DNA of 4,140 bases from positions 1-4,140 of IMG/VR virus record IMGVR_UViG_2547132218_000005; one strand, given 5' to 3'. The stretch is from a virus. Its lineage: Duplodnaviria > Heunggongvirae > Uroviricota > Caudoviricetes. Below, piece by piece: positions 1 through 4,140 of the stretch; within the stretch, counting starts at the first letter, position 1; each line of letters begins with the position of its first letter. Under the pieces are notes generated by a model. It ran no database searches and was not told where the DNA came from. It worked only from the letters and a program-made list of their open reading frames with translations. The position numbers and the translations under genes are program-made.

Positions 1-20
1 CAGCAAACCGTTTTGCCCGA

Positions 21-36
21 TATGGGAATTCCCATA
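21..36. repeat. 16-bp perfect palindrome TATGGGAATTCCCATA
   Basis: Self-complementary over all 16 positions, lying 11 nt downstream of the small hydrophobic ORF stop. An adjacent imperfect inverted repeat gcaaa-ccgt-tttgc lies at 3..16. Candidate protein-binding site (operator-like) or RNA hairpin. Confidence 0.55.
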
Positions 37-46
37 CGGAATGAAT

Positions 47-151
47 TCAGTTCCCCAGGCGCTCCATCAAAAACACAACCAGGCAGTAAACACCCACAAC
101 AGCAATAACAGCCAGAGCGCCTTCCATTACCAGTGAAATATCATCCGACAT
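47..151 (-). CDS. Small hydrophobic peptide (34 aa, one predicted transmembrane helix); candidate small membrane protein
   Basis: Not in the ORF track (too short). ATG 151..149 is preceded by TCACACCAAGGGAGGGAAT (strong SD, 3-4 nt spacer). My manual translation is MSDDISLVMEGALAVIAVVGVYCLVVFLMERLGN, stop TGA at 49..47. An acidic N-terminus, a ~20-residue hydrophobic stretch and a short polar C-terminus are typical of small phage/prophage membrane peptides and type I toxin-like peptides. The frame is open upstream, but the only other in-frame starts (GTG 196..194, TTG 202..200) lack an SD. Confidence 0.4.
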   Translation of the reverse strand: MSDDISLVMEGALAVIAVVGVYCLVVFLMERLGN

Positions 152-260
152 ATTCCCTCCCTTGGTGTGAATCCCGGCGAACGTTTTTACCCCCACCGAC
201 AAATAACATATACTAGAAAAGCAATAGCTATAGCAACGCCTGCAAATGCATCTGGCCGGC

Positions 261-824
261 TCATTGGTTCTCCCCCTGTGTCGCTTCTACTGCGATCTGA
301 CTGGCGTATTCGTTAATGGTAACGATAAGTTCTTGCTCGGCCTCATCCAGACAACTACCGATACCTCGCCTGTCCACTTCAGAAGCATCGAAATCTGCAC
401 GAAGCCTGGCGACCTTCAGGATTGCGGACAACACCTCATCAGGGATTGCCGGAGAGTTGGTTGACGTTTCCGAGATTATCCGAAAATTATTGGTTGACGA
501 ACCCTTATTTTCCCGAAAGTTTCCAGCCTGAAGCATGGCGGCGCGGTGACACCAGATAATCCAGCCAAGCGCCATATCCCATGCCATGTATTCTCTATCG
601 CCATTTTTTGCTCTGCGGCGATCTACAGATTCCCCGAAACGCTTCTCCATAAATAATTCATAGGCTGCCCGTTCATCCGATACTGATGCCAGTGATGCCA
701 GTGCAATTTTTAATGCGGTAAGCATGTTGTTTTGATCTTCATCGAGTCCGAACGGTATTTCATCCCGTGATGACTCAATTCCGGTAATCGTGTTCTGTAG
801 CCATTCTTTGGTTAATTCAGTCAT
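261..824 (-). CDS. Hypothetical protein (187 aa)
   Basis: ATG 824..822; long open frame with balanced composition. Weak SD (GTAGTGAAAA) and a GC stem-loop 9 nt upstream of the ATG. No family recognised. Stop TGA 263..261. Confidence 0.65.
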   Translation of the reverse strand: MTELTKEWLQNTITGIESSRDEIPFGLDEDQNNMLTALKIALASLASVSDERAAYELFMEKRFGESVDRRRAKNGDREYMAWDMALGWIIWCHRAAMLQAGNFRENKGSSTNNFRIISETSTNSPAIPDEVLSAILKVARLRADFDASEVDRRGIGSCLDEAEQELIVTINEYASQIAVEATQGENQ

Positions 825-833
825 TTTTCACTA

Positions 834-849
834 CCGCCCTTTCGGGCGG
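834..849. other. GC-rich stem-loop (6-bp stem CCGCCC/GGGCGG, 4-nt loop), function unassigned
   Basis: ccgccc-tttc-gggcgg at 834..849. On the minus-strand transcript it reads CCGCCC-GAAA-GGGCGG (GNRA-type loop) and ends 9 nt before the ATG of the 187-aa gene. No U-tract follows on either strand, so it is not a canonical intrinsic terminator. Confidence 0.5.
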
Positions 850-950
850 TCTCCTGATGTTCTGAGGGTGCAGGAATCCCTCCGGTTAAGGATTTAATAA
901 AAATCATTTCTGATTTAAATTTTCAGTGTTTAGTTGTTGGTTTATAGCCT

Positions 951-1262
951 TTATGCTTCGGCCTTATTTCTCAGCCATACACAAACAGGACCATCTTCGG
1001 TGTCATGTATCGAACCGATAAACCATCCCTCACCTTCTGGTCGCTCAGGTTCCCATGCTGAAATATCAGGGCCATCTGCGTCCAGATTAAAATCATCTTC
1101 ATCCATACTACGGATAGCCCACTGAAGATTATTTTTCTCCATCCAGGCGTTAAACTCTTCCGTTGAAATATATTCCCGACCATCACAGAATTTTTCATAT
1201 TCAGGATGCGTCCAGCAGCCATATTCATTACGTTCCACTGGCATTTCTTTAATTACGCTCAT
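951..1262 (-). CDS. Hypothetical acidic protein (103 aa)
   Basis: ATG 1262..1260 preceded by ATAAGGGGGGTAA (SD-like). Acidic, Trp-rich sequence (EYGCWTHPEYEKFCDGREY ... WEPERPEGEGWFIGSIHDTEDGPVCVWL). I do not recognise the family with confidence; resemblance to small phage DUF-type proteins is only a vague impression. The alternative 85-aa ORF at 971..1228 is in another frame of the same region and is less protein-like. Confidence 0.65.
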   Translation of the reverse strand: MSVIKEMPVERNEYGCWTHPEYEKFCDGREYISTEEFNAWMEKNNLQWAIRSMDEDDFNLDADGPDISAWEPERPEGEGWFIGSIHDTEDGPVCVWLRNKAEA

Positions 1263-1447
1263 TTACCCCCCTTATTTAATTTTCTACGACACTTTTTACA
1301 ATCATCTGGACTTTCGAATGTATCCGGCTCACGCTCATTGCCAAAATACATCCACCCACCGCAAATACTTGTTATTTCACCTTCAGCAAAATAATGATGT
1401 TTTTTCGCCATAAGTGACCTTGCCCAGCCCGGATTCGTTTTACTCAC
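1259..1447 (-). CDS. Small Cys/His-containing protein (62 aa), possible metal-binding, GTG start
   Basis: GTG at 1447..1445 is preceded by TCGCAAAGGAGGCAACAA (AAGGAGG about 6 nt upstream), a very good SD. An alternative internal ATG lies at 1411..1409. Contains HH...C(GGW)...C-K-K-C, which could form a small zinc-binding knuckle. Stop TGA 1261..1259 overlaps the next ATG (ATGA). Confidence 0.55.
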   Translation of the reverse strand: MSKTNPGWARSLMAKKHHYFAEGEITSICGGWMYFGNEREPDTFESPDDCKKCRRKLNKGGK

Positions 1448-1800
1448 TTGTTGCCTCCTTTGCGAAGCTCTGCGACTAACTCGTCACATATGTGCGTCAA
1501 AGAGCAAAGTTTGATTGCTGGATGTTCGCGCACCATCTCCACACCCTGCGCCCGCAATTCTGCCAGAAAAGCGTAGGGGTCAGTTTTTTCACTGTGGTAC
1601 ATGGCATCATAGATAATCATTGCAGCGACACCTGCCTGTCCTGCATCTGTGACGGATATATGCTCAAGGGCTACGGCCATTGCGTGTTTCAACCTCTCAT
1701 TTTCCACCTCAAGCACCACACGATTAGCCTCCAGCTCTTCTATGCGTTTTTTTGCTGCTCCCAGCTCAACACGCAGCTCCTGATAGTTAATCTCGCTCAT
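1444..1800 (-). CDS. Hypothetical protein with N-terminal coiled-coil (118 aa)
   Basis: ATG 1800..1798 preceded by GCGGGAGGAAGGAGA (strong SD). N-terminus ELRVELGAAKKRIEELEANRVVLEVENERLKHAMAVALEH has heptad-like charged/hydrophobic periodicity. Architecture is like prophage Ea22-type coiled-coil proteins, but I cannot assert family membership. Stop TGA 1446..1444 overlaps the next start (GTGA). Confidence 0.65.
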   Translation of the reverse strand: MSEINYQELRVELGAAKKRIEELEANRVVLEVENERLKHAMAVALEHISVTDAGQAGVAAMIIYDAMYHSEKTDPYAFLAELRAQGVEMVREHPAIKLCSLTHICDELVAELRKGGNK

Positions 1801-2021
1801 TCTCCTTCCTCCCGCACTGCTGTTTTATATGCCCGAAGCACATGCGATGTTTTTCCTGACACAGTGCTTCTCAGAAAGAAAATTCCACTGGTGTTTATTA
1901 CCAGATACGGGTCAGCAAGACGCAGCATATCCAGTATGTGATTATGTTTTCTTGTTTCCAGCACCGTACTTGAAATAAGCATATGTGACACGGGGCCGAA
2001 ATCATGATATCTGATTTTCAT
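1797..2021 (-). CDS. Hypothetical protein (74 aa)
   Basis: ATG at 2021..2019 preceded by CAGCAGGGTGATGAT (moderate SD), 21 nt downstream of the preceding gene's stop. Its stop TGA (1799..1797) overlaps the next gene's ATG (1800..1798) as ATGA. No recognisable motif; the composition is less protein-like than its neighbours, hence the lower confidence. Confidence 0.45.
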   Translation of the reverse strand: MKIRYHDFGPVSHMLISSTVLETRKHNHILDMLRLADPYLVINTSGIFFLRSTVSGKTSHVLRAYKTAVREEGE

Positions 2022-2042
2022 ATCATCACCCTGCTGTAAAAA

Positions 2043-2753
2043 TTACCCGTTATCTCCTGTCGTTATTTTCTGTATGACATCACGATGCTTATTAATTTCC
2101 CGCAGCGCGGCGCATAAGCGCTCCCACTTCTGAACCTGACCTTTTGCCCGGCGCAGCTCGCGGTTAGCCACATGCAGCGATGGTAAAATCAGACCATCCG
2201 GATGCTTTCTGGTGAACGACGGCTGTGACTGCACTGTGACCGCCACACTTTCCGTTTTTATTTCTTCCTGTGTTTCCGCTTCCCCGACTGGTAACGCAAC
2301 ACCTGCTGGCTGAGGAAAGGCTTTACCATCCGTTTCCGTTATGGATGCGGCTTTCGGCTCTGCCGGTAAATCAGCGCCCGGTATGCAGTACCGAAATTTA
2401 CCGCCCTGATTCACGCGAATCAGACGCCCTTTGCTGATTGCCATGGCCAGTGATGAATTCGCCCGGCGGGAGGTAATCCCGAACATCAGTGCCAGCTCAT
2501 CCGCCGTTTGTGGGCCATGATGTTCAATCGCCTCAGTCAGCATTTGCGCTGTCACTTTCGGTACCGGTGACACTGGTTCACTTTCACCAGTCTGAGTCAG
2601 CCACCACATCGACCCCTTGTTATCCGCTTCACCACGGCGCTTCAGTTTCCACAGTTCGTTGACAGCATCTTCGCGGCTGATTCCAAGGCGCGATGCCACT
2701 ACCTGTGAAGAGGCTTTTTTCAGTGCTTTCAGTGCGTCAAATACGGTTTCCAT
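2043..2753 (-). CDS. Hypothetical DNA-binding-like protein with two winged-helix-like segments separated by an acidic/Pro-rich linker (DUF1627-like, tentative)
   Basis: The track ORF is 2043..2771, but its first codon is TTG with no SD. The first ATG is at 2753..2751 ([13 protein letters not shown]...) and is preceded by GTCGGAGGAAATATTA (GGAGG about 8 nt upstream), so I place the start at 2753. Two segments ([36 protein letters not shown] and [46 protein letters not shown]) have the helix-turn-helix then basic wing pattern typical of winged-helix domains. The DUF1627 label is from memory and unverified. Stop TAA at 2045..2043, 33 nt after the P-like stop. Confidence 0.65.
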
Positions 2754-2786
2754 TAATATTTCCTCCGACAAAATCGTTTCTCAGAT

Positions 2787-3449
2787 TCAAATAAAACCAG
2801 CTGCCTTCCGGCGTTCGTATTCCTGTTTCAGCCGTTCAATTGGCGTTGGCCCTTGCGGGTGTTTCGCCCCTTCCAGTTGTCGTCGCACTGGCGGAACACT
2901 CATCCCGTTACCAACATGCTTTGCCCATTTCGTCAGTTGCCGTTCCGCAAGTCGTTTTAACTCACCTTGCGTCATCTGGCGCTCAATCCCTCTGGTACGC
3001 ATTTCGAGGCAGATGTGGTACAGCACAGGCTGTGGCCACGGGTATTTATCACTCCCGTCGTATCGCCAGGATTCATTGCGCCAGCGCCGGTACTCTTCCA
3101 TCACGGCATCCACCGTAAGACCAAATGGATTTGCCCCACTCTCCGAAATCAGCGCAACAAACTCAGCCAGGTCCGGGGGCCACGTTTCACCCGCCCGGCA
3201 GCGGTCCATGCACTGACGGCACACCAGACGGATTTGCTGTTCAGTCATCGCACCAATCTGGGCAATCCAGAGCTTCGAAGGTGCGGCCCCGTTCTTCTGA
3301 GTCCAGCGGTTCGAATACACCTCCCCCATGAGCTCCCACAGCTTCCAGGCCGTTTCCGTTGCTGATAAATCCGTTGTCACGTTCCCACTGTTCGCGTGCA
3401 GCCCGGATTTCCTGAACTGCCCGTGATGCCGTGCCACCTGATGCTGCAT
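2787..3449 (-). CDS. Replication protein P-like DnaB helicase loader
   Basis: 220-aa ORF. The C-terminal ~150 aa align with lambda P as I recall it (DKYPWPQPVLYHICLEMRTRGIERQMTQGELKRLAERQLTKWAKHVGNGMSVPPVRRQ versus ESYPWKSNAHYWLVTNLYQNMRANALTDAELRRKAADELVHMTARINRGEAIPEPVKQ, and PPDLAEFVALISESGANPFG versus PSPGQFVAWCREEASVTAGLP). ATG at 3449..3447 is preceded by CAGCAAGGGGGGAAGCC (SD-like, ~5 nt spacer). An alternative start is the internal ATG at 3248..3246 (Met68), which sits 2 nt upstream of the initiator stop codon (ATGACTGA) but has a weak SD. Start-site choice is unresolved. Confidence 0.8.
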   Translation of the reverse strand: MQHQVARHHGQFRKSGLHANSGNVTTDLSATETAWKLWELMGEVYSNRWTQKNGAAPSKLWIAQIGAMTEQQIRLVCRQCMDRCRAGETWPPDLAEFVALISESGANPFGLTVDAVMEEYRRWRNESWRYDGSDKYPWPQPVLYHICLEMRTRGIERQMTQGELKRLAERQLTKWAKHVGNGMSVPPVRRQLEGAKHPQGPTPIERLKQEYERRKAAGFI

Positions 3450-4140
3450 GGCTTCCCCCCTTGCTGACTGGTTTTACCTGTGCCCTGACGTGCTGCACGT
3501 GGCGGGCAAATTTCTGCTCCCACTGAACCTGCGTGAAAACCTTCCCCTCCGCCATCCAGTAATCCCGGAATGCGGCAAGCTCAGCAGGTGTAAATTCCGG
3601 CTCAGGCAGAGCCATACCCCACACTGCTGCCCGTTGTCGAAAATCCGGCGACGGCTGCCAGACAGTAGTCATCGAAAATTTCCCGATCGGTTCGCTCAGG
3701 CCGTCCAGGTATTCAGGTTCGGCTGTCTGCAACGGCGCACCATTCGACTCACTGGTCGGAATACTCTCGCGCGCGTTATGTGTGGGGTTTAATTCTGTAT
3801 CTGTATCTTTATCTGTATCTTTATCTGTCGTGACTTGTCGTGACAGATGCGTGACACGTCGTGACTCATCGTGACAATCAGCATTATGTTTCCGCAGCTT
3901 TTCCCGCTCCCGCTGCGCTCTCTTGCGCTCTGCCGGGGATTTTGCCGTTTGCGAAACGTTACCATTGTCCTCTTTCAGCACCTGACGTTTTTCCCATCCG
4001 GAAATAAGGTCACCATCCAGAACCCGCCCCTGCATTGCATGCAAAATTGAATCAATTACGTCTTCCGTCACATCAAGCGCACTTGCTAAATCTTCCGTCG
4101 TGACATCAATGTGACCACGTAGTGACACGCCGTGACATGT
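3241..4140 (-). CDS. Replication initiator (lambda O-like role), 5'-partial, with C-terminal DnaT-like (primosomal protein I) domain
   Basis: ORF track gives 3241..4128, but its first codon is GTG and the frame stays open upstream to the window edge (in-frame codons 4140..4129 read T-C-H-G), so the true start is beyond 4140. The segment IGKFSMTTVWQPSPDFRQRAAVWGMALPEPEFTPAELAAFRDYWMAEGKVFTQVQWEQKFARHVQHVRAQV aligns closely with the C-terminal domain of E. coli DnaT as I recall it ([63 protein letters not shown]). Position directly upstream of a P-like loader gene fits the lambdoid O-P arrangement. The middle of the protein is low-complexity (K/R/E-rich, TDKD repeats) and coincides with the DNA repeats described below. 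Stop TGA at 3243..3241. Confidence 0.8.
   Translation of the reverse strand, partial: TCHGVSLRGHIDVTTEDLASALDVTEDVIDSILHAMQGRVLDGDLISGWEKRQVLKEDNGNVSQTAKSPAERKRAQREREKLRKHNADCHDESRRVTHLSRQVTTDKDTDKDTDTELNPTHNARESIPTSESNGAPLQTAEPEYLDGLSEPIGKFSMTTVWQPSPDFRQRAAVWGMALPEPEFTPAELAAFRDYWMAEGKVFTQVQWEQKFARHVQHVRAQVKPVSKGGSHAASGGTASRAVQEIRAAREQWERDNGFISNGNGLEAVGAHGGGVFEPLDSEERGRTFEALDCPDWCDD
3794..3829. repeat. Tandem hexamer repeat (TCTGTA/TCTTTA) x 6, AT-rich, abutting iteron cluster A
   Basis: tctgta tctgta tcttta tctgta tcttta tctgtc at 3794..3829, about 70% A+T. On the coding (minus) strand it encodes the TDKDTDKDTD segment of the initiator. Confidence 0.8.
3828..3875. repeat. Iteron-like direct repeat cluster A: 5 x (T/G)CGTGAC at 10-11 bp spacing; candidate origin iterons
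   Basis: Units ctgTCGTGAC (3825..3834), ttgTCGTGAC (3835..3844), agatGCGTGAC (3845..3855), acgTCGTGAC (3856..3865), tcaTCGTGAC (3866..3875). GTGAC cores end at 3834, 3844, 3855, 3865, 3875. Because the spacing is not a multiple of 3, the same DNA motif is read in all three frames of the initiator gene (C-H, S-R, V-T, L-S-R, V-T), so the repetition is at the DNA level, not a peptide repeat. Confidence 0.6.
4098..4136. repeat. Iteron-like direct repeat cluster B: 4 x GTGAC at 10-11 bp spacing, may continue beyond the window end
   Basis: ccgTCGTGAC (4095..4104), atcaATGTGAC (4105..4115), cacgtAGTGAC (4116..4126), acgcCGTGAC (4127..4136). Same orientation and core as cluster A; flanking bases are more variable. 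The window ends 4 nt after the last copy. Confidence 0.5.

Follow-up and report, generated by a model that had tools for sequence, protein, structure and literature searches.

A mosaic accessory gene of O157:H7-type lambdoid prophages with an exchangeable C-terminal module and a putative hairpin-bridged ribosome-binding site

Introduction

We analysed a 4,140-nucleotide (nt) stretch of Caudoviricetes DNA (positions 1 to 4,140 of IMG/VR record IMGVR_UViG_2547132218_000005; hereafter the window), focusing on the 187-amino-acid (aa) open reading frame (ORF) that occupies positions 261-824 on its minus strand, which we refer to as the target. The window covers the early-right part (replication to nin-like) of a lambdoid prophage typical of Escherichia coli O157:H7, and in one complete genome this prophage adjoins mtfA and tRNA-Ser. 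All genes of the window lie on the minus strand and are co-directional, mostly with stop-to-start overlaps, such that one passes from replication genes through small hypothetical genes to the target and to small hydrophobic ORFs on its 3' side, which are followed, beyond the window, by hokD, DUF968, RusA and Q.

A first-pass annotation made from the letters alone had described the target as a well-formed ORF separated from the upstream genes by an AT-rich spacer, and both descriptions hold. The ORF starts with ATG and is 100% identical to the RefSeq coding sequence (CDS) WP_000137954.1, annotated as 'hypothetical protein', while the spacer measures 126 nt (825-950) with a GC content of 28-30% over 871-960. 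Window positions 1-950 are present at ≥99% DNA identity in 344 of 5426 complete E. coli genomes, and the exact target protein is recorded on at least 1000 contigs; a literature search for the accession found no mention of it. ORF 261-824 is a real gene, namely an uncharacterised, non-housekeeping accessory gene of a prophage, much as the annotation had proposed, and a match to a characterised phage family was sought without any turning up. Coordinates are collected in Table 1.

Table 1. Positions of the target gene, its modules, its leader and neighbouring features within the window
Feature	Position	Strand	Basis or remark
Target CDS, 187 aa	261-824	-	ATG start; WP_000137954.1 / UniRef A0A152VMV1, uncharacterised
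Module A, acidic helical N-terminus, aa 1-47, ends in hinge KIALASLA	684-824	-	PHROG 3323/5117, alignment, tblastn
Module B, aa 48-99, core PDER.AYE.FMEKRFG..VDRRRAKNGD.EYMAWDM..GW	528-683	-	phrog_660
Linker, aa 100-128, AGNFRENKGSSTNNFRIISETSTNSPAIP	441-527	-	AlphaFold2 predicted local distance difference test (pLDDT) 29-33, predicted disordered
Module C, aa 129-181, acidic helix-loop-helix cassette	282-440	-	phrog_14306; DNA alignment; AlphaFold2 pLDDT 70-74
Tail TQGENQ and stop, aa 182-187	261-281	-	homologous to PQEVRQ* of DUF551 relatives
Leader cassette, conserved, portable, ~100 nt	825-926	-	similarity to other copies starts at palindrome CTGAAAATTTAAATCAG
A-rich unpaired spacer AGUGAAAA, hairpin to AUG	825-832	-	unpaired probability 0.62-0.99
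Stem-loop 2, 7-bp G+C stem with GAAA (GNRA) tetraloop	833-850	-	ΔG -14.1 kcal/mol, P ~1
Shine-Dalgarno AGGAG at 5' foot of hairpin	851-855	-	read from sequence
Stem-loop 1, GAGGG/CCCUC stem, 9-nt loop	864-882	-	fold prediction
Conserved UCCU, predicted weak pairing with Shine-Dalgarno AGGA	889-892	-	fold model; 4-bp helix; speculative anti-Shine-Dalgarno
25-aa hydrophobic ORF, unannotated (MSRPDAFAGVAIAIAFLVYVICRWG)	187-264	-	ATG overlaps target stop (ATGA)
34-aa single-helix hydrophobic ORF (MSDDISLVMEGALAVIAVVGVYCLVVFLMERLGN)	47-151	-	strong Shine-Dalgarno GGAGGG; RefSeq hypothetical WP_001278460.1
Four small hypothetical genes		-	between DUF1627 gene and target ORF
DUF1627 protein		-	follows helicase loader in gene order
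Lambda-P-like helicase loader		-	follows initiator in gene order
DnaT-like O-type initiator	3241-4128	-	internal iteron-like repeats

Results

The target protein is built from modules

Three helical modules (A, B and C) and a linker predicted to be disordered make up the target protein, a mosaic in which two conserved hinges, KIALASL(E/A)A and RAAMLQ...NSPxIP, connect the modules. This modular build was seen in an alignment with relatives and with proteins extracted from 80 IMG/VR loci, and it is mirrored in the PHROG matches, which are segmental (aa 1-47, 48-98 and 93-181, plus one full-length match) and all of unknown function. The earlier statement that the protein belongs to no recognisable family therefore stands for Pfam and NCBIfam, where scans of the ORF gave no match, and for PADLOC-DB, whose profiles gave none at E≤0.1, but it does not stand more broadly, as five PHROG families match separate segments and the protein has 4326 homologs at E≤1e-3.

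Each module has its own relatives and its own character. Module A, which has an isoelectric point (pI) of 4.1 and bears out the acidic N-terminal third noted in the first-pass annotation, is ~55-60% identical (aa 1-49) to the N-terminus of P22-like EaA / DUF550 proteins; the C-terminal module (aa 129-187) likewise has a pI of 4.1, and the whole protein one of 4.6. Module B (within aa 48-99, ...AYELFMEKRFGESVDRRRAKNGDREYMAWDMALGW...RAAMLQ) is 95% identical over 63 aa to a DUF551 protein labelled 'Ea22' in phage PAS61, and proteins of 69-98 aa exist in which it stands nearly alone. The linker is of low complexity (GNFRENKGSSTNNFRIISETSTNSPAIP). In module C, the second helix (CLDEAEQELIVTIN) is invariant across variants, and the copy in the window deviates from the family consensus at four near-invariant loop positions (F148S, D149E, G150V and D157S).

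Among close copies, the ratio of nonsynonymous to synonymous polymorphism (pN/pS) was 0.07 for module B. Module A gave ~0.9, the linker 1.3 and module C 0.6-1.2, the last of these from small counts. Module B is, because of this low ratio, the conserved core and the most constrained part of the protein, and modules A and C and the linker are either weakly constrained or diversifying.

Module C occupies the position of the DUF551 domain

Most of the 120 best matches to the target carry PF04448 (DUF551), covering the N-terminal 53-97% of the query at 57-99% identity. The DUF551 domain itself (~68 aa, ...PVTPDGWISCSERMP...HWMPLPEPP) is absent from the target, with no Pfam match at E≤0.1 and with alignments placing module C where the domain would be, and the remainder of the target is homologous to DUF551-containing proteins. 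The modules have recombined freely, such that most relatives run from the linker or from module C into a DUF551 domain, and other relatives carry a DUF550/MazZ-type pyrophosphohydrolase domain, an Ead_Ea22 region, a helix-turn-helix domain or Lar. Among 82 proteins, the domains that co-occur with module C were DUF551 (22), Ead_Ea22 (5), the MazZ-type pyrophosphohydrolase (1) and Lar (1), and the target's modules are found in some Ead_Ea22 proteins (5/82 and 1/59).

Comparison with the gene that occupies the same slot elsewhere revealed where the exchange took place. In E. coli O104:H4 C227-11 and another Shiga toxin-producing E. coli genome, a DUF551 protein of 194-195 aa lies directly upstream of the 34-aa ORF and hokD. 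DNA alignment with this gene gave near-identity across module B and the linker, broken at ...STNSP|AIPDE versus ...STNYP|VTPDG, and identity returned ~20 nt before the stop (TQGENQ* versus PQEVRQ*) and ran on through window positions 3-250. One breakpoint of the exchange falls within the linker and the other ~6 codons ahead of the stop. Because identity breaks in the linker and resumes before the stop, module C and the DUF551 core are alternative cassettes at one site, exchanged in one direction or the other. Megablast matches of window 443-707 end at 443, which is the boundary of linker and module C, and linker DNA is near-identical across relatives that are otherwise unrelated; the linker is therefore likely a recombination joint.

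Module C was found in many of the 1049 cluster representatives that match the query, in proteins of 69-463 aa; these occurrences come from a search of the representatives, as a homolog search with module C alone gave 9 proteins owing to a word-index limit. It forms the C-terminus of proteins whose N-termini are of at least three other kinds (185, 250 and 277 aa), makes up nearly all of a 90-aa Enterobacter protein and also lies inside longer proteins, where DUF551 follows it. A simple C-terminal truncation of a DUF551 gene was considered and rejected, because module C is a widespread cassette with several N-termini, a near stand-alone form, internal positions and occurrences in many representatives, and the 3' tail of the target is homologous to the DUF551 tail.

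The names that phage annotators have given to the relatives are EaA, Eaa, DUF551 or DUF550, and one relative has Eae and YfdR as neighbours in an ea region. Two of the relatives, which their depositors named 'Ea22' and 'EaA', match DUF551 only and have no Ead_Ea22 domain; in PAS61, a true Ead_Ea22 gene lies two genes away from the DUF551 relative labelled 'Ea22'. The target gene is largely explained as a new combination within the known, uncharacterised EaA / DUF551 / Ead-Ea22 mosaic pool of lambdoid phages.

The leader places a stable hairpin between Shine-Dalgarno and start codon

On the mRNA strand the leader of the target reads ...AAUCCUUAACC-GGAGGGAUUCCUGCACCCUC-AGAACAUC-AGGAG-[ACCGCCC GAAA GGGCGGU]-AGUGAAAA-AUG, with the brackets enclosing the 18-nt hairpin, which occurs once in the window against an expectation of ~0.01. 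The first-pass annotation had seen a hairpin in place of a clean Shine-Dalgarno (SD) sequence; the hairpin is real and stably folded (stem-loop 2 in Table 1), but a canonical AGGAG lies directly 5' of it. From this AGGAG to the AUG (822-824) the distance is 26 nt along the chain, too far to function, and 8 nt with the hairpin closed, which is within the functional range. By analogy with the split ribosome-binding sites (RBSs) of phage T4, for which hairpins have been shown experimentally to reduce the spacing from 22 to 5 nt (gene 38) and from 27 to 11 nt (gene 25) (PMC3014915), we infer that the seemingly missing SD of the target is a hairpin-bridged SD of a known kind, in which the GNRA-capped hairpin between AGGAG and AUG would cut a non-functional spacing to a functional one.

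The fold model predicts the AUG and the A-rich tract to be open and gives the SD an unpaired probability of 0.1-0.3, as it pairs with the upstream UCCU. This pairing, a weak 4-bp helix in the model, could make translation conditional.

The annotation had further held the gene to be independently regulated, which the transcriptional evidence does not bear out. Neither a sigma-70-like promoter, sought in the spacer of the target and in two other leader versions, nor an intrinsic terminator, sought in window 1-1400 and the same two versions, was found, and the hairpin is followed by AGUGAAAAAUG and not by a terminator-like U tract. The simpler reading, as the window genes are co-directional and mostly overlapping, is read-through transcription out of the early-right operon. 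Independence, we infer, lies in translation initiation, which relies on a structured RBS of the gene's own and not on coupling to the upstream gene; the target would be transcribed as one gene of the early-right operon (replication to nin), with translation starting from a portable leader of its own.

Rfam covariance models gave no match at E≤1 anywhere in the window. A lambda-type nut site (boxA plus boxB), of which two copies per phage just downstream of the early promoters would be expected, was considered and rejected: 20 kb of prophage, immunity region included, has just one copy of the hairpin, and it stands at the distal end of the nin-like block. The motif AUCCUUAAC resembles boxA.

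The leader recurs in front of other genes

Searching with nhmmer revealed 77 copies of the leader, 32 of them distinct, in the loci fetched. Behind each of the 77, the protein opens with M-(T/A)-E-L-T-(K/R)... before continuing into bodies that differ widely. Copies that have diverged stand ahead of a 60-aa DUF7167 gene (6 nt from stem to AUG) and a 72-aa DUF4014 gene (5 nt), and across fusions to three unrelated gene families this distance is 5-8 nt. The A-rich spacer varies between copies (AAUGAAAA and AAUAAAA), and protein relatives that lack the leader have ordinary SDs (AAGGUGAAAUAGCUAUG or AAGGAGUAACACAUG). In four IMG/VR loci (L077 and L081-L083), the 277-aa-type gene has GTG in place of ATG behind the conserved leader (..GGTAATGAAAAGTGACTGAA..), and ATG-based ORF calling there gives a 250-aa product from an internal Met.

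Over 28 distinct leaders, the AGGA of the SD and the UCCU are both invariant, and in 26 of them AGGAG directly adjoins the stem at its 5' foot. Stem cells were paired in 98.4% of cases overall (96.9% for stem-loop 2 and 99.3% for stem-loop 1), with changes that are wobble-compatible or single mismatches, 8 extra pair types and an A-U / G-U / G-C series at the closing pair of the hairpin. In a scan of one genome per species, the leader was found only in E. coli, Shigella flexneri and Citrobacter braakii; the element is too narrowly distributed, and simply too young, for a covariation test.

Four further loci deserve description in their own right. In C. braakii ATCC 51113 (~1279-1320 of the locus, minus strand), the same two-stem-loop leader with a G-C closing pair is followed by CAAUUGUUUGUUAGUU and no start codon. 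In S. flexneri SFBU1023 and E. coli ECMA0423, leader similarity ends at the last base of the 3' arm of the hairpin (..GGGCGG|GGAGCAGTCACAC..), which suggests a recombination or insertion breakpoint inside the leader element. An unrelated viral contig (IMGVR_UViG_3300006920_004308, ~4065-4098, plus strand) has AGGAG-CGCCCGC-GAAA-GCGGGCG-GAUAAAAA-AUG before a 69-aa ORF (MSTQLRF...); this may be an independent hairpin-bridged SD, as a single and biased observation from a pattern search that fixed the SD, the loop and the A-tract.

Function searches and a working model

The first-pass annotation had found no assignable motif, and sensitive searches led to the same place: the profile scans described above, sequence searches of the PDB with the target and with profiles of module C and of modules A/B (nothing at E≤10 save two chance matches at E ~1) and Foldseek searches of the target models against BFVD and the PDB (no match at E≤1e-3) connected the protein to no characterised family. 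Two AlphaFold2 runs (18 and 80 sequences) predicted an all-helical protein with a mean pLDDT of 52 and 53, in which module C reached 70-74 and the linker (100-128) was disordered. The best viral Foldseek matches, which were not significant, were uncharacterised single-module homologs (Erwinia phage Midgardsormr38 and N15 gp45). The suggested defence-related function gained no positive evidence, PADLOC included.

The best available analogy comes from lambda Ea22 and its Shiga toxin (Stx)-phage variants V1-V3, in which a short N-terminal segment and a long helical region are joined by a mobile linker to an interchangeable acidic C-terminal domain (CTD); the gene is itself a mosaic, with DUF551 among the CTDs that can replace one another, and Ea22 and its variants are tetrameric and pro-lysogenic with an unknown target (PMC10834534). 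Our best guess, and the most likely role by this analogy, is that the target is a non-enzymatic, Ea22-like adaptor that binds a partner from host or phage through its exchangeable C-terminal module. As a protein with no catalytic domain it would act as an adaptor; module B, the constrained helical part of the N-terminal half, would serve folding, oligomerisation or a common partner site, and the flexible linker would present the acidic C-terminal module to that host or phage partner.

Small ORFs and other features of the window

The 25-aa ORF whose start overlaps the target stop has its SD in the last codons of the target (GGGGGAG here, AGGAGG in relatives), and in relatives the ORF is kept at 27 aa (MNWPEAFAITGVAMAITFLVYVICRWG), its C-terminal half being invariant; the product is probably a small membrane peptide made by translational coupling. 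The last ~6 codons of the target are kept because they hold the RBS of this coupled ORF. The 34-aa ORF, which had no Pfam match, lies directly upstream of hokD in the full prophage.

The proposal that homologs of the target travel with a small hydrophobic ORF did not survive a survey of genomic context. Small ORFs lie 3' of 19/19 module-C-terminated relatives versus 12/48 DUF551-terminated ones, which ties them to the hokD-side slot and not to the protein family, and a functional linkage of the target with these ORFs was set aside on that ground.

Just past the stop of the 34-aa ORF, towards hokD, window 18-44 holds a palindrome, almost perfect, with an EcoRI site at its centre (core TATGGGAATTCCCATA, 25-40, within CGATATGGGAATTCCCATACGG), which could be an RNA hairpin of a hok-type mRNA leader or a protein-binding site. 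At 1444-1800 (minus strand), a 118-aa coiled-coil-like protein matches phrog_492 and phrog_368 and, weakly, Ead_Ea22 (E 0.004, below the Pfam cut-off), so that the nin-like block of this prophage may hold a second accessory gene of ea type. The initiator gene contains iteron-like direct repeats (3794-3876 and 4094-4137; three TCT(G/T)TATCTGT at 12-nt spacing, and 22-mers with CGTGAC), which are probably the replication origin of the prophage.

Discussion

We lean, if modestly, towards one overall explanation, in which the target is a functional, non-essential accessory gene, a member of the mosaic pool with module C at the DUF551 position, that has its own hairpin-bridged leader and encodes an adaptor protein. 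The change of ATG to GTG at the same start, tolerated in relatives, speaks for it. Several results pull the other way. The Ead_Ea22 (PF13935) profile gave no match to the target at E≤0.1; pN/pS values of ~0.6-1.3 in modules A and C and the linker mean that constraint there is weak or the data too few; the structural models reach a mean pLDDT of only 52-53, and Foldseek and PDB searches gave no significant match. For the leader, the predicted pairing of AGGA with the upstream UCCU argues for repression rather than enhancement, the 28 distinct leaders show no double-sided compensatory change and no covariation above shuffles, and the C. braakii hairpin stands in a terminator-like context, followed by a U-rich tract and no ORF.

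The same elevated ratios outside module B (~0.9-1.3 for modules A and C and the linker among close copies) could reflect a decaying remnant, that is, a DUF551-family gene that lost its functional CTD by illegitimate or homologous exchange and now drifts, hitch-hiking in a successful O157 prophage. The missing DUF551 domain, which most relatives carry, and the four departures in the module C loop would fit such decay, but we consider it unlikely given a reading frame intact in 344 genomes, the low pN/pS of module B, a module-C-terminated architecture that recurs with several unrelated N-termini and nearly alone, an invariant second helix, and the retention of both the structured RBS and the stop-start overlap. 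The target could also be an arms-race effector (an anti-defence decoy, a superinfection-exclusion factor or a defence component) with modules shuffled under diversifying selection, as the extreme shuffling, the raised pN/pS outside module B, the acidic modules, the adjoining hokD and two small membrane peptides, and the occurrence of its modules elsewhere with the restriction-alleviation domain Lar and a MazZ-type dNTP pyrophosphohydrolase might suggest. The Lar and MazZ associations amount to 1/82 each, however, the small-ORF neighbourhood belongs to the slot and not to the family, and PADLOC, BFVD and PDB searches gave no match to a defence profile and no likeness to a characterised anti-defence protein, which makes this account improbable as well.

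A different doubt concerns the leader alone, in that the hairpin may not be an RBS element at all but an RNA-stability or processing structure (5' or 3'), a remnant terminator or a regulator site, with translation starting from the A-rich tract independently of the distant AGGAG. Translation can begin without an SD at starts that are A-rich and unstructured (PMC3121790), and the C. braakii hairpin (followed by UUGUUUGUU), the missing compensatory covariation and the partial sequestration of the SD by UCCU point in the same direction. Set against this, all E. coli and Shigella copies are followed by an A-rich and not a U-rich tract and then, in three unrelated gene families, by a start codon (AUG or GUG) 5-8 nt from the stem, AGGAG abuts the stem in nearly all distinct leaders and the terminator scan was negative, so that we hold this alternative to be rather doubtful. 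A bolder possibility, to which we give little credence, is that the leader is a mobile translational-control cassette, a portable regulated RBS put on unrelated accessory genes (EaA-type mosaic, DUF7167 and DUF4014), in which the hairpin-bridged SD would express the gene and the UCCU anti-SD and/or a factor binding the GNRA loop would make expression conditional.

A widespread O157:H7 'hypothetical protein' is now placed in the EaA / DUF551 / Ea22-type mosaic pool, with its module boundaries and recombination joints mapped, and this map shows which pieces to test, module B being the constrained core and module C an alternative to DUF551. If the leader is confirmed, hairpin-bridged split RBSs would extend from two T4 genes to temperate enterobacterial phages and could travel between genes as a cassette. 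Such starts matter for the annotation of gene starts, where SD-spacing rules miss them, and for the design of structured RBS parts.

Comparison with known systems

The closest known proteins are those with DUF551 (PF04448; e.g., YfdS of E. coli CPS-53 and WP_000206792.1 of C227-11), which share module B, the linker and the last ~6 codons with the target at 93-97% DNA identity; the same-slot DUF551 gene also agrees with it in position, as both follow the replication genes and precede the 34-aa ORF and hokD. They differ in the domain itself, in place of which the target has the 55-aa helix-loop-helix module C. Sensitivity to H2O2 has been reported as a phenotype for YfdS and also for Ea22. P22-like EaA/Eaa proteins (BTP1 eaA; ST64T and Emek eaa1 with DUF550), encoded in the early-left ea region by early genes that are non-essential and have no known function, resemble the target through N-termini 55-60% identical to module A, whereas all sequence past the hinge differs.

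With lambda Ea22 (Ead_Ea22, PF13935) the target would share a mosaic gene, a helical N-terminal region, a flexible linker and an acidic exchangeable CTD, a likeness drawn from models of low confidence (pLDDT 52-53), and it departs from Ea22 in having no Ead_Ea22 Pfam match and in lying in the nin-side region instead of exo-xis. The leader, in turn, resembles the split RBSs of T4 genes 38 and 25 (PMC3014915; Nivinskas et al. 1999; Malys & Nivinskas 2009) in that the SD lies too far from the AUG along the chain (26 nt here, 22 and 27 nt in T4) and a stable hairpin falls wholly within the SD-AUG interval, leaving a residual spacing of 8 nt compared with 5 (gene 38) and 11 nt (gene 25). Unlike those sites, it belongs to a temperate lambdoid prophage, forms a ~100-nt cassette found on unrelated genes, and has a second upstream stem-loop and a possible anti-SD.

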